Part shown: positions 8,014 to 11,516 of the stretch, piece by piece
Numbering within the stretch: position 1 is the first letter of the stretch
Layout of the letters: every line of letters starts with the position of its first letter
IMG/VR virus record: IMGVR_UViG_2541047915_000006
Length of the DNA stretch: 19,841 nt
Direction: 5' to 3' (one strand)
Origin: a virus
Lineage: Duplodnaviria; Heunggongvirae; Uroviricota; Caudoviricetes
The notes under the pieces: generated by a model
What the model was told of the DNA's origin: nothing
The model's database searches: none
The model's input: the letters and a program-made list of their open reading frames with translations, nothing else
Program-made: the position numbers and the translations under genes

Positions 8014-8286
8014 TCATCTCGCCGTCAGTTGTTTTGATTTCCGGTAGCCTGCCGCGTAAAGAGCTACGTTCGGAAGACAAGTTGAACCTTCATATTTTCT
8101 GGTCAACGTTGTCAGAGTTATCACTTCTGCTCTCATTGCTGGTTTGAGCTTGCATTGCAAGACCACTCGTGAAGGGGTTGGCCTGTGTAGCTTGTCGGAG
8201 CTGATCGCCTCCTGACTTTGCAGATTTGCGCGACGAGCTCTACGGCGAGAAGCTGCGGTGCCTTTAAATTCTGTTTTTCTGGACAT
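8014..8286 (-). CDS. N: N-type transcription antiterminator (90 aa), H-19B/933W-like
   Basis: Arg-rich motif near the N-terminus (GTAASRRRARRA). C-terminus CLPNVALYAAGYRKSKQLTAR matches my recall of H-19B/933W N. GGAGG SD 5 nt before the ATG at 8286. The ORF-track start at 8358 would read through nutL. Confidence 0.8.
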   Translation of the reverse strand: MSRKTEFKGTAASRRRARRANLQSQEAISSDKLHRPTPSRVVLQCKLKPAMRAEVITLTTLTRKYEGSTCLPNVALYAAGYRKSKQLTAR

Positions 8287-8384
8287 GGATTCCTCCCGAA
8301 TAAACTTTGGCGATGCAATCTCGAAGCTCCTCCTGAGACGGTTGCTTCGGCATTGCATCCCACAGCTTATGTGGTTGGGTGATC

Positions 8385-8430
8385 TGGCTTTTCAGCCACG
8401 TAGTCGAGAGTCGACGTTGTTTAAAGAGCC
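8385..8430 (-). promoter_or_regulatory. nutL (boxA + boxB)
   Basis: Minus strand reads boxA GGCTCTTTAAACAAC (8416..8430), then boxB hairpin TGGCT-GAAAA-GCCA (8385..8398), upstream of N. Confidence 0.55.
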
Positions 8431-8475
8431 TGCCAGTCTGTTCCATTTGGCTTCCAGCGTCCTGCTGACGGTTAA

Positions 8476-8504
8476 ATAGTACGATATGTACTTTACAAGA
8501 TCAA
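8476..8504 (-). promoter_or_regulatory. Candidate pL with operator OL1
   Basis: Minus strand: -35 TTGATC, 17-bp spacer TTGTAAAGTACATATCG, -10 TACTAT. The spacer carries the near-palindromic AGTACATATCGTACT, which also occurs in the pR spacer. Confidence 0.4.
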
Positions 8505-8697
8505 TACAATTTGTTGTAAGTTGGCGTGGTTTTTTATAACGCTTTGTATTTAATAGTGTTGTTTTTTAGCGTGGATGTATTGCCTCGGCGATGTAAGGAG
8601 AGATCAGAATTGCGTGGTTTAGTGGGTTGCATCTATTTATTTTTCAATAAATATAATTGGTTATGTGTTTTTAGGTGGGCGAACGTGAGGCAAAGAA

Positions 8698-8722
8698 AAC
8701 CCGGCGCTGAGGCCGGGTTGTA
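8698..8722 (-). terminator. Intrinsic terminator ending the cI operon (tImm-like)
   Basis: Minus strand CCCGGCCTCAGCGCCGGG hairpin followed by TTTTCTTTG, starting 1 nt after the stop of the 250-aa cassette gene. Confidence 0.5.
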
Positions 8723-9475
8723 TTATGCTGCAAGTCTCTTAACCCAAGTCTCTCTTTTGGAGAATGGTAGAACTTGGCTTGATTCATGGAAGAGTAAGGA
8801 GAGTTGTTGCATTTGATCACCAATTGCTTCGCTGTCTATAACAACAAATCTGTTGTTATACTCCTCACTTGAAGCTTTAAGATCAATTAGTTTCCCAAGC
8901 AATGAGTAAGCACTATTCCAGCTTCCTCCGTGTTTCACGCTTGATGTAAAAACGTATTTAGGTATGTCGGTTTTTATTGTTACAGGGACGGTAATTTGAT
9001 GTCCACTCAAGCCATATACGTTTTCACGAAGAGAAAGTGCGTCTCTAAGCTCTGTGTGATATAGATAATCAATAACCATACTTTCAAACTTTTCAGCTTG
9101 AACTGGCTGATACCAGTCTAACGACAAAGTTGATGCGAGTATACCAGCTCTAATTATGTTCGATGTAATCGCACCGACATCCTTTTCTGTTGCCCAAGCA
9201 ATGATTTCTCCTCGAGCATTGAGTTCTGCGCCTTCTTTAAGCAGTAATTGTCGTATCTCATCAAGTCGTTTTTTGGTAAGCGAGATCCCTCTTGCCTCCA
9301 TATTCATTAAGGCATCGCATCTGTCACTAACTAAATACCTACCATTGACTTCACGGATAAAGGCACCGACATGCTCTCCATCATCACAGTAAGTGAATGG
9401 ACTGATAATTCTCAAGGTCTTGCCTATTGGATGGCATTCGAAACCTAGTTGTGAGATCACTGTTGAGCACATCAT
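8723..9475 (-). CDS. Uncharacterised protein B of the cI-distal two-gene cassette (250 aa), in the rexAB position
   Basis: Long ORF with the only stop-free frame. ATG at 9475 overlaps the stop of the upstream gene (ATGA). About 40% GC by spot counts. No similarity to RexA/RexB or any family I can name. Confidence 0.7.
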   Translation of the reverse strand: MMCSTVISQLGFECHPIGKTLRIISPFTYCDDGEHVGAFIREVNGRYLVSDRCDALMNMEARGISLTKKRLDEIRQLLLKEGAELNARGEIIAWATEKDVGAITSNIIRAGILASTLSLDWYQPVQAEKFESMVIDYLYHTELRDALSLRENVYGLSGHQITVPVTIKTDIPKYVFTSSVKHGGSWNSAYSLLGKLIDLKASSEEYNNRFVVIDSEAIGDQMQQLSLLFHESSQVLPFSKRETWVKRLAA

Positions 9476-10029
9476 ATTCCAAACCCCATTTGCCCCGACT
9501 CATCTTCAAGCGGTAAAGGTATTCTCCCAGAGTAAGTTATGTTCAGATGTTTACAGAAGTAATTCCAATACCCTACCAGGTCATCTGGGTTTATGTCATC
9601 TTCGATTGGAAACGCTATTCTATCACTATAGTATCCAGCTTCTTCATAGTATACATGGTAGTGAGCACCGTAAATGATATCTTGGTACTTCGGATGATCG
9701 ACCTTGTAACTATTCGTGTGTTTGTCAAAGTGATAGGTATCTACCGCGAAAACCCTCTTGTTATGATAGAAAGCAATAATATTTATTTTAGGGTAAGAAA
9801 TCGGGTCATCAGGTTCTGAATCCTGATCTGGTTTCCATTTCAGTTCAAACTTTAGCCCTTGTATAGGTATACAATCCTCATCCAAGGGGATGATATGGGC
9901 TTGTAGCCACATATCAGAGCGACTTGGTTTCTGTTTCCATTTAACGCCAGAAAAGTTAACTATTTTTTTACAATAAAGTACTTTATCAACTTCTACTTGG
10001 CTTGGCTGATAATCATCTATTTTTGCCAA
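9472..10029 (-). CDS. Uncharacterised protein A of the cI-distal two-gene cassette (185 aa if started at TTG 10029), in the rexAB position
   Basis: ORF starts 39 nt downstream of the cI stop on the same strand. The ORF-track start is a TTG preceded by AGGGCGG; the first in-frame ATG is codon 40. Rich in Asp/Glu/Tyr/His (e.g. HPKYQDIIYGAHYHVYYEEAGYY). No recognised family. Confidence 0.6.
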   Translation of the reverse strand: MAKIDDYQPSQVEVDKVLYCKKIVNFSGVKWKQKPSRSDMWLQAHIIPLDEDCIPIQGLKFELKWKPDQDSEPDDPISYPKINIIAFYHNKRVFAVDTYHFDKHTNSYKVDHPKYQDIIYGAHYHVYYEEAGYYSDRIAFPIEDDINPDDLVGYWNYFCKHLNITYSGRIPLPLEDESGQMGFGI

Positions 10030-10068
10030 TGTTTACCGCCCTGTAAATTGTAGATAAAAGTGGTTTCA

Positions 10069-10722
10069 TCACCCAAACGTCTCTTCAGGCCATTGGCTGG
10101 CGATAACTTTCCCCACAACGGAACAACTCTCATTGCATGGGATCATTGGGTATTGTGGGTTTAGTGGCTGTAGAAACACCTGACCGCTATCCCTGATCAG
10201 TTTCTTGAAGGTAAATTCATCACCACCAAGTCTGGCTATGCAGAAATCGCCGGGCTCAACAGCTTGCTCAGGGTCAACCAGAATTAACATCCCGTCAGGA
10301 AAGCTGGGTTTGGAACCTGTTGGTGCGGTCATTGAGTTACCTTCAACCTCAAGCCAGAATGCAGAGTCACTGGCTTTTTTGGTTGTGCTTACCAATCTCT
10401 CCGCATCGCCTTTGGTAAAGGTTCTGAGTTCTGGAGAGAACATCCCAGCCTGAACATGAGAAAAAACAGGGTACTCATATTGTTTTTTAACTGGGGCCGA
10501 TGAGTATTCGCCAACAGGTGAAAATGTCCCGTCGTGGTTGAATGATATGTTATCAATACCAAGGTATTTAAACACCACACCAATATCACTAAGAGATGGA
10601 TGACGAGATCCGCGCAACCAGTGTCCAATCCCACCCTGCGTCATACCTAGCTCTTCGGCTAACTTCTCTTGAGTTATGCCGAGCTCTTTCATTCTGGATC
10701 TAGCCAGTTCATACCATTTCAT
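10069..10722 (-). CDS. cI: CI-type prophage repressor (HTH_XRE N-domain + LexA/S24 autopeptidase C-domain)
   Basis: [26 protein letters not shown]; Ala-Gly cleavage site (QAG-MF); catalytic Ser (GNSM) and Lys (FKKL) in the C-domain. Start taken at the ATG at 10722 (AGGA SD 7 nt upstream); the ORF track extends to 10770. Immunity type is not lambda. Confidence 0.85.
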
Positions 10723-10839
10723 TTTCATGTCCTTATTATTACGCTCTGTACTGGAACCATCCATGCACAATGTGTATTTTTACTTGTATTCGCAAAGTAC
10801 ATATTGTATTTTTTTATTCGTGTTTACTATGGAGGGCAT
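10723..10839. promoter_or_regulatory. OR region with divergent pRM/pR and operator OR1
   Basis: Plus-strand candidate pR: -35 TTGTAT (10784..10789), 17-bp spacer, -10 TATTTT (10807..10812). The spacer carries AAAGTACATATTGTA, the same core as the pL spacer. TTGTA/TACAA half-site-like motifs recur upstream. Confidence 0.45.
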
Positions 10840-11055
10840 ATGAGCAACCTACGAAAATATCGAGAGTCACTGAATATCTCTCAAACAACACTTGCTAAGG
10901 CAGTTGGATGCACACAGGGAGCTATCGGACATTGGGAATCTGGTCGTCGCTTCCCAGACCTTAAAACATGCCGTGCTCTTGTTGCGTGCCTAAACAAGTT
11001 AGGCGCAAAAGTCAGTCTTGATGACGTGTTCCCGCCGGAACACAAAGCCGCTTAA
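10840..11055 (+). CDS. cro: Cro-like HTH repressor (71 aa)
   Basis: GGAGGG SD 4 nt upstream of the ATG. HTH TQTTLAKAVGCTQGAIGHWESG. Divergent from cI across the operator region. Confidence 0.8.
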   Translation: MSNLRKYRESLNISQTTLAKAVGCTQGAIGHWESGRRFPDLKTCRALVACLNKLGAKVSLDDVFPPEHKAA

Positions 11056-11065
11056 TAAGCGGATC

Positions 11066-11111
11066 CGCTCTTTGTAACAACGGACATTCGTCCTACGTCG
11101 CTGAAAAGCGA
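11066..11111 (+). promoter_or_regulatory. nutR (boxA + boxB)
   Basis: boxA CGCTCTTTGTAACAA (11066..11080); boxB hairpin TCGCT-GAAAA-AGCGA (11098..11111), downstream of cro. Confidence 0.55.
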
Positions 11112-11196
11112 GTTCCAAGATATCTGACCAACTAAGGCCATATGCGTTTCCACGCATACCTTTCAACTAACTATTCACTATTGGAAATCTTAAGAA

Positions 11197-11493
11197 ATGG
11201 AAAGAACAAGTTACAGCAAACTATCACAGCGTGACGTTGATCGCGCAGAAACAGATTTACTTATCAATCTGTCAGCTATTACCCAGCGCGGTCTGGCAAA
11301 GATGATTGGCTGTCATGAATCGAAGATAAGCAGAACGGACTGGAGATTTATTGCTTCGGTCTTGTGTGCTTTCGGAATGGCATCAGACATCAGTCCGATT
11401 AGCAGGGCTTTTAAGTATGCGCTTGATGGACTCACCAATAAAAAACGCCCGGCGGCAACCGAGCGTTCTGAACAAATCCAGATGGAATTCTGA
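11197..11493 (+). CDS. cII: CII transcriptional activator (98 aa), mosaic
   Basis: C-terminal ...LTNKKRPAATERSEQIQMEF matches lambda CII, while the N-terminal two-thirds differs. HTH near ITQRGLAKMIGCHESKISR. Confidence 0.85.
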   Translation: MERTSYSKLSQRDVDRAETDLLINLSAITQRGLAKMIGCHESKISRTDWRFIASVLCAFGMASDISPISRAFKYALDGLTNKKRPAATERSEQIQMEF

Positions 11494-11516
11494 GGTCATT
11501 ACTGGATCAATCCACA
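11437..11516 (-). ncRNA. oop: oop antisense RNA with its intrinsic terminator
   Basis: Minus strand reads ...CCAGTAATGACCTCAGAATTCCATCTGGATTTGTTCAGAACGCTCGGTTGCCGCCGGGCGTTTTTTATT, near-identical to my recall of lambda OOP RNA, ending in the GCCGCCGGGCG hairpin plus U-run. Confidence 0.6.

Follow-up and report, generated by a model that had tools for sequence, protein, structure and literature searches.

How was the early-regulatory (immunity) region of a lambdoid prophage put together when its flanks resemble lambda and its regulators do not? This question is raised by positions 8014–11500 of IMG/VR virus record IMGVR_UViG_2541047915_000006, a 19,841-nucleotide stretch of DNA that we analyzed in full and refer to as the window. 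An initial annotation, made from the letters alone, described this region as a swappable immunity module with one recombination joint inside cII and another between sieB and N, and suggested that such joints may have carried in an unfamiliar cassette. Our comparisons indicate with high confidence that it is the early-regulatory region of a phage 21-like (Jouyvirus) lambdoid prophage common in extraintestinal pathogenic Escherichia coli (ExPEC), and that it is pieced together from seven or more segments whose joints lie at short conserved stretches.

We fetched nine reference phages (lambda, 21, 933W, H-19B, VT1-Sakai, VT2-Sakai, HK022, phi80, and P22) and compared them with the window by blastn and in 50-nucleotide windows. 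The initial annotation had proposed a windowed comparison against lambda, H-19B, 933W, 21, and phi80 for locating breakpoints. Alignment placed the left limit of lambda homology at ~7385–7395, and informative sites placed the crossover in cII within 11225–11428. The backbone is phage 21-like (OL657228), with 97.5% identity over 1–5377, 98.2% over 6628–7296, 96.2% over 11165–13924, and 96.5% over 17999–19555. The segments and their closest references are as follows.

2068–5377 and 6628–7395: exo through ral; closest to lambda (96.9–98.4%).
7297–7395: ral–sieB intergenic region; phage 21 homology ends at 7296 and lambda homology at ~7385–7395, and VT1-Sakai homology starts at 7311.
7311–8080: sieB and the last 66 nt of N; closest to VT1-Sakai (94%), with P22 at 86% over 7022–8077.
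8014–8720: N, nutL, pL/OL, and the immunity terminator; closest to VT2-Sakai (93%).
8721–10066: two-gene cassette; matched by none of the nine references.
10071–11533: cI, OR, cro, nutR, and cII; closest to VT2-Sakai (96.6%).
10068–10479: C-terminal half of cI; also matched by lambda (93.4% nucleotide identity).
11431–13924: cII 3′ end through ninB; closest to lambda (97.3%).

Read from left to right, the patchwork comprises a lambda/21-type left arm up to ~7395; a sieB of P22/VT1-Sakai type that continues into the conserved final 66 nt of N; VT2-Sakai-type N, nutL, and OL; a conserved terminator linker; a cargo cassette of two genes, exchangeable on its own and placed where lambda has rexAB; VT2-Sakai-type cI, cro, and nutR, this cI having a lambda-type C-terminal domain; and, from inside cII rightward, oop, O, P, ren, and ninB of lambda/21 type. 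This mosaic is real, and the statistics leave no ambiguity about it. Its joints sit where alleles share sequence, namely at the C-termini of N and cI and in the core and C-terminus of cII together with oop. This placement is the expected product of homologous recombination between lambdoid phages. The interval between cI and N has been cited as a mosaic-diversity hotspot (Degnan et al. 2007, as cited in PMC8585504).

The left boundary of the region turns on sieB.

7416–7997, plus strand: sieB (superinfection exclusion B), P22/VT1-Sakai allele (Pfam SieB, E=2.5e-22).

The initial annotation took both flanks to be lambda-like. This description holds for the right flank, from the cII 3′ end through O-P-ren-ninB, and for exo-bet-gam-kil-cIII-ea10-ral on the left, but not for sieB, which has no nucleotide match to lambda and is 94% identical to VT1-Sakai and 88.9% identical to P22. 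SieB shares 178 of 193 residues with its VT1-Sakai homolog, 157 of 192 with that of P22, and 35 of 163 with that of lambda. The left lambda joint, placed in the annotation between sieB and N, therefore lies upstream of sieB, where lambda homology ends 20–30 nt before the sieB start codon. Its position depends on the reference. Against VT1-Sakai and P22, the joint falls inside the 3′ end of N (~8080); the N stop codon (8014) marks the start of homology only against VT2-Sakai, 933W, and H-19B.

N and its target sites come next.

8014–8286, minus strand: N antiterminator, 90 aa, VT2-Sakai allele (Pfam N_peptide, E=1.5e-32).
8386–8430, minus strand: predicted nutL, read from the sequence; boxA GGCTCTTTAAACAA (8430–8417), inter-box hairpin GTCGACTCTCGAC (8415–8403), and boxB GGCTGAAAAGCC (8397–8386).
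11066–11110, plus strand: predicted nutR, read from the sequence; boxA CGCTCTTTGTAACAA, hairpin GGACATTCGTCC, and boxB CGCTGAAAAGCG.

These sites, downstream of pL and pR, are the arrangement expected for an N-dependent early region. The nut sites were read by eye; an automatic boxA/boxB finder recovered only those of lambda (boxB stems here are 4 bp). The nutL sequence is identical to that of VT2-Sakai, as are the boxA, hairpin, and boxB of nutR. A compensating change, G-C to C-G, separates the two boxB stems (GGCT/AGCC at 8386–8397 in nutL, CGCT/AGCG at 11099–11110 in nutR), which enclose the same GAAA(A) loop.

N had been assigned to the H-19B type. Its last 21 residues, CLPNVALYAAGYRKSKQLTAR, are indeed identical to those of H-19B (21/21), with 20 of 21 shared with 933W, 20 of 21 with VT1-Sakai N, and 17 of 21 with P22 gp24. 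The corresponding 66 nt (8014–8079) are common to H-19B, 933W, VT1-Sakai, and P22 gene 24, and the tail is not specific to H-19B/933W-type N. As a whole, however, this N is the VT2-Sakai allele (89 of 90 residues identical). It shares 55 of 90 residues with H-19B N, is 37 residues shorter, and in its N-terminal 69 residues, which hold the arginine-rich motif, matches H-19B at only 30 positions. Within 8014–8720, 933W and H-19B match only 8014–8079 and the terminator stretch. H-19B and 933W share with the window a nut layout of boxA, inter-box hairpin, and boxB (for nutL the comparison is with 933W, as the H-19B nutL was not recovered), and their nutR hairpin is identical to the GGACATTCGTCC found here. 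Their boxB loop is GACAA, whereas the boxB of the window is (G/C)GCT-GAAA-AGC(C/G) with a GAAA(A) loop. Because the boxB loop and the N-terminal RNA-binding part differ despite the shared tail and nut layout, ‘H-19B-type N’ describes a family resemblance and not an allele match. VT1-Sakai N has the same tail with a phage 21-like front half, and the N of the window is itself joined at the conserved tail.

The repressor, cro, and the operators set the predicted immunity type.

8478–8552, minus strand: OL/pL region; operators AGTACATATCGTACT (8478–8492) and ACAACAAATTGTATT (8503–8517), and a weaker third site near 8536–8550 (by eye).
10069–10722, minus strand: cI repressor, 217 aa; VT2-Sakai-type helix-turn-helix N-terminal domain and lambda-type C-terminal domain (10069–10479); Pfam HTH_3 and Peptidase_S24.
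10738–10810: OR/pRM/pR region; operators at 10738–10752 and 10796–10810, and a middle site at ~10764–10778 placed from the VT2-Sakai annotation.
10840–11055, plus strand: cro, VT2-Sakai allele.

cI (helix-turn-helix and S24 peptidase) and cro diverge around a multi-site operator, and a second operator cluster lies at pL. The cI protein is identical to VT2-Sakai cI at 216 of 217 residues, and Cro at 71 of 71. Four operators (8478–8492, 8503–8517, 10738–10752, and 10796–10810) carry the 15-bp motif AGTACAnAnnGTAyT, for which a search of the window gave 8 hits where 2.25 were expected, a count that none of 200 shuffles attained. All operators are identical in VT2-Sakai, and the few differences fall between sites. 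Since the window shares with VT2-Sakai (Sp5) its cI DNA-binding domain, its cro, every operator, and the two nut sites, its immunity specificity is predicted to be of that type.

The initial annotation considered cI and cro not to be those of lambda. For Cro this is borne out (18 of 60 residues shared with lambda), and for cI it applies to the DNA-binding part (16 of 81 N-terminal residues) but not to the C-terminal 136 residues, 135 of which are identical to lambda cI. In lambda, this C-terminal part holds the RecA cleavage site and the surfaces for dimerization and cooperativity. Over 10480–11430 no nucleotide match to lambda was found, and the region is not of the imm lambda type. The cI open frame extends to 10764/10770, and two close relatives of the window, phages ev207 and PhiR63_2, carry an annotated 231-aa version that starts upstream of the operator at 10738–10752. 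Given the position of that operator, the 217-aa start (10722, as in VT2-Sakai) more likely fits. Frequent co-transfer of cI and cro has been reported (PMC9836094).

By analogy with lambda, cI would bind 15–17-bp operators (AGTACAnAnnGTAyT) at OL and OR and shut off pL and pR, with cro acting from the same OR. N would antiterminate at nutL and nutR. cII would act at a TTGC-N6-TTGT site within the 5′ end of its own gene to activate a promoter that points leftward, and oop would be antisense to the cII 3′ end.

Between the terminator and cI, the window carries two genes that lambda lacks.

8598–8720, minus strand: left linker of the cargo slot, ~120 bp, with the immunity-operon terminator (stem 8719–8698 and T run, from a terminator scan).
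8723–9475, minus strand: cassette gene B, 250 aa; DUF1828 N-terminal domain and a C-terminal restriction-endonuclease-like fold.
9472–10029, minus strand: cassette gene A, encoding a beta-rich protein of 185 aa; 4-nt overlap between its stop and the gene B start.
10069–10096: right linker of the cargo slot, 27 bp (CCCAAACGTCTCTTCAGGCCAyTG).

Lambda, 933W, and H-19B have the left linker at 82–90% identity, and VT2-Sakai has it too. In lambda this stretch is also situated upstream of pL, a place of action for IHF and upstream promoter elements, and by analogy such elements may explain its conservation. The right linker forms the last nine cI codons here and in lambda. It is non-coding just downstream of unrelated repressor genes in 933W (12026–12051), H-19B (4520–4549), and phi80 (8559–8585), and the homology to the cI end stops at about the same base in all three.

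We scanned IMG/VR for the 20-mer core of the linker and identified at least 120 contigs. At least 63 loci (62 scanned contigs and the window) also hold the terminator motif, and their cargo falls into at least 21 sequence clusters of 633–2091 bp. When the cI-side flanks were grouped by raw 10-mers, 7 of the 15 clusters with two or more members adjoined different flank classes among the matches listed (5 of 15 when variants with the lambda C-terminal domain are merged).

These observations bear on the proposal that the cII and sieB–N joints delimit a single swapped block that brought in the cassette. The cassette does lie inside a block that differs from both lambda and phage 21, and it stands beside the same class of cI end, that with the lambda C-terminal domain, in 13 of 15 sampled loci (window included, among the matches listed). 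However, it has boundaries of its own at 8720 and 10067. Phage 2G7b is 99% identical to the window up to 8719 and again from 10067, phage 2B8 is 94–97% identical up to 8720 and from 10068, and both have other cargo in between; VT2-Sakai likewise combines the same immunity with different cargo. Conversely, Stx1_121427 carries the same cassette (8590–10098, 98.5%) between H-19B-type N/OL and H-19B-type cI, two IMG/VR loci among the matches listed pair it with a 933W/H-19B-type flank, and five further prophages, whose cI and cro are of other types, have a 68%-identical orthologous pair in this slot. Cassette and immunity type thus vary independently, so the immunity-module joints did not carry the cassette in, and we consider the single-block proposal improbable. 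Cargo beside cI is instead exchanged on its own, between the terminator linker and the 27-bp cI-end linker, and the two linkers offer a simple route to harvest candidate prophage defense genes.

The right-hand joint of the patchwork lies in cII.

11197–11493, plus strand: chimeric cII; codons 1–77 of HK022/933W/Sakai type, last 20 codons lambda-identical (Phage_CII, E=7e-34).
11225–11428: crossover interval in cII, where Sakai-type and 21-type sequences are indistinguishable; the lambda alignment starts at 11431.
11439–11515, minus strand: oop antisense RNA, placed by homology; terminator stem 11469–11442, promoter-like −10 at 11528–11523 and −35 at 11551–11546 (terminator and promoter scans).

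The initial annotation was right that cII is chimeric and has a lambda C-terminus. Residues 1–77 match VT2-Sakai and 933W at 72 positions, the last 20 are identical to lambda, and the 933W, H-19B, Sakai, and HK022 alleles match 10–12 of the last 21. In nucleotide sequence, the window keeps to the Sakai and 21 types as far as ...GCGCTTGATGGA and to lambda from there through the oop terminator. Sites that are informative among the window, VT2-Sakai, and phage 21 split 24:1 in favor of Sakai to the left of 11224 and 12:23 to the right of 11429, a switch (Fisher p=6.7e-7) that places a recombination joint inside cII, as had been claimed. Across 11225–11428 the parental types are alike in sequence, as a homologous crossover would leave them. 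We also considered a sharp illegitimate junction at 11431 and rejected it, since against VT2-Sakai and phage 21 the crossover is placeable only within 11225–11428, where the parents agree. Of the initial proposal, the swappable immunity module and its joint in cII are supported; the placing of the left joint and the carriage of the cassette fail.

A CII-site-like TTGC-N6-TTGT lies on the minus strand at 11206–11219 (from the VT2-Sakai annotation and the sequence), and the antisense oop covers the cII 3′ end. The oop sequence, described earlier as lambda-identical, is nearly so (74 of 77 nt, with mismatches at 11487, 11509, and 11513). One mismatch is a synonymous cII change, and the two near the oop 5′ end match the 933W/HK022 type, indicating that the cII–O spacer is itself finely mosaic.

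The overlap of two functions at this site, the cII C-terminus and the oop terminator/antisense region, raises a second explanation, namely that selection on the overlapping RNA and protein produced the lambda-identical C-terminus by constraint or convergence, with no recombination. This is very unlikely. The stretch 11431–11500 is 96–98% identical to lambda and 21, synonymous positions included, whereas the equally functional Sakai, 933W, and HK022 alleles reach 70–74%; lambda identity also runs on for 2.4 kb through O, P, ren, and ninB, and the informative sites switch abruptly.

The cII joint is real and, by its distribution, old and widespread. The cII of phage 21 is built alike, its N-terminal part being of HK022 type and its C-terminus of lambda type. 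A 140-base joint probe (11361–11500) matched DE3, a lambda derivative carrying imm21, at 95.1%, and about 68 phage records at 95% or more. Because of these matches, we regard the joint as a property of the 21-like backbone lineage, not as the result of something recent in this element. It also matches the classical right boundary of the imm21 substitution, which lies in cII.

The segment as a whole is already known. The window is identical over 7500–12000 (100% at the nucleotide level) to phages ev207, ev017, PhiR63_2, and PhiR57_1, and 7396–11530 (4.1 kb) is present at 100% identity in the complete E. coli genomes of UTI89, S88, IHE3034, NU14, APEC O18, and the type strain ATCC 11775. At least 80% of 7396–11530 is held by 237 of 5,426 genomes. 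The initial annotation had named uniform identity to a single known phage as the outcome that would count against its reading, and formally the 100% match to these four phages is such an outcome. It establishes that the segment is not new. Its relation to the classical phages is a separate question, and is the one answered by the comparisons above. Deposited in sequenced phages and hundreds of genomes, the segment reflects ordinary lambdoid modular evolution. An assembly chimera, for which we found no point in favor, has a negligible chance of explaining the mosaic, as the 4.1 kb is 100% identical in the independently sequenced UTI89, S88, IHE3034, APEC O18, and ATCC 11775 and 7500–12000 in the four isolated phages.

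Several points weigh against the patchwork and immunity-type interpretation. Two operator sites, the third in OL and the middle one in OR, match weakly and were positioned with the help of the VT2-Sakai annotation. The 5′ 100 nt of cII (11200–11300) are only 88% identical to every classical reference, implying that at least one donor is not among the phages compared. Every function assigned here follows from homology, and the order and number of recombination events are not reconstructable from these comparisons.

What might the cassette do? Pfam and PHROGs returned only DUF1828, a weak DUF6978 match, and families of unknown function. Protein A has an invariant Asp/His cluster and matches only DUF6978 in Pfam, weakly; a search for structural neighbors found none. 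Against the profiles of the PADLOC candidate system PDC-M24, protein B matches PDC-M24B over its full length (E=4.7e-10), and protein A matches PDC-M24A only weakly (E=4.8e-4, 60 residues). A literature search found no paper naming PDC-M24 and nothing useful for DUF1828 or ev207, and PMC12315714 does not mention the PhiR phages. Protein B matches the PD-(D/E)xK nuclease fold, but no invariant D...(D/E)xK triad is evident in an alignment of 24 sequences, and we do not claim nuclease activity for it. Orthologues occur in Salmonella, Yersinia, Klebsiella, Serratia, Photorhabdus, and Aeromonas, where the pairing is kept and the slot is the same where checked.

By its position, the cassette plausibly has a lysogen-expressed exclusion or defense role. 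Similarity to RexAB was not found (no nucleotide match to lambda over 8721–10066), and only the genomic position is common. A more specific reading, which we regard as possible but doubtful, is that the cassette is an uncharacterized exclusion/defense system expressed from the cI operon like rexAB, that the slot may be a dedicated exchange site, and that the 27-bp relic is functional or recombination-promoting and not a passive leftover. The relic is retained even behind unrelated repressors.

Elsewhere in the window, a 1250-bp insertion sequence (IS) of the IS3 family (5378–6627) splits ea10. It has two overlapping minus-strand transposase frames, terminal inverted repeats (TGAAGTGGT...), and a 3-bp target duplication, and it is missing from lambda and phage 21. 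An intact lambda cIII RNA thermosensor lies on the minus strand at 5080–5138 (Rfam RF01804, 88.5 bits against a gathering score of 50). It was the only hit in an Rfam scan of the whole window, in which no oop or nut family reached the gathering score. A 380-aa porin gene (16329–17471, minus strand), annotated as OmpD/OmpC in PhiR63_2 and ev207, lies between the Q antiterminator and a phage 21-type pinholin. It is a late-region cargo gene of a sort known from other lambdoid phages. At the right window end, a fragment of another transposase gene occupies 19566–19832. Homology to ev207 stops at 19555, which suggests that the prophage may be cut or interrupted there.

In many ExPEC strains (ST95-type, e.g. 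UTI89 and S88), a resident prophage has the same kind of repressor, cro, and operators as the Shiga toxin 2 phage of O157 Sakai. On this basis, such lysogens are predicted to be immune to that class of Shiga toxin phage.

The closest known relatives of the window are ev207 (NC_049949, Jouyvirus) and PhiR63_2 (PV340574), with 99.8–100% identity across nearly the whole window, IS excepted. ev207, ev017, PhiR63_2, and PhiR57_1 all lack the 1250-bp element in ea10, and PhiR63_2 has an additional IS200-family insertion close to ninB that is not in the window. Phage 21 has a common backbone (96–98%) from int through ral, from cII through ninB, and in the lysis genes. It departs from the window in N, cI, cro, and operators, all of which are its own, and in lacking both sieB and any cargo between cI and OL.

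Lambda shares with the window its gene order, the terminator linker, the cI C-terminal domain, the last 20 cII residues, most of oop, and O (296 of 299 residues). It differs in the cI DNA-binding domain, cro, operators, N, nut sites, and sieB, and it has rexAB in place of the unrelated two-gene cassette. The same type of immunity region is found in VT2-Sakai/Sp5 (AP000422), Stx2 II, the Stx1-converting phage, and the PA-series O157 phages. VT2-Sakai nonetheless differs from the window in having other cargo between the terminator and cI (H0092/H0093), no sieB adjoining N, and a cII C-terminus, O, and P of HK022 type.

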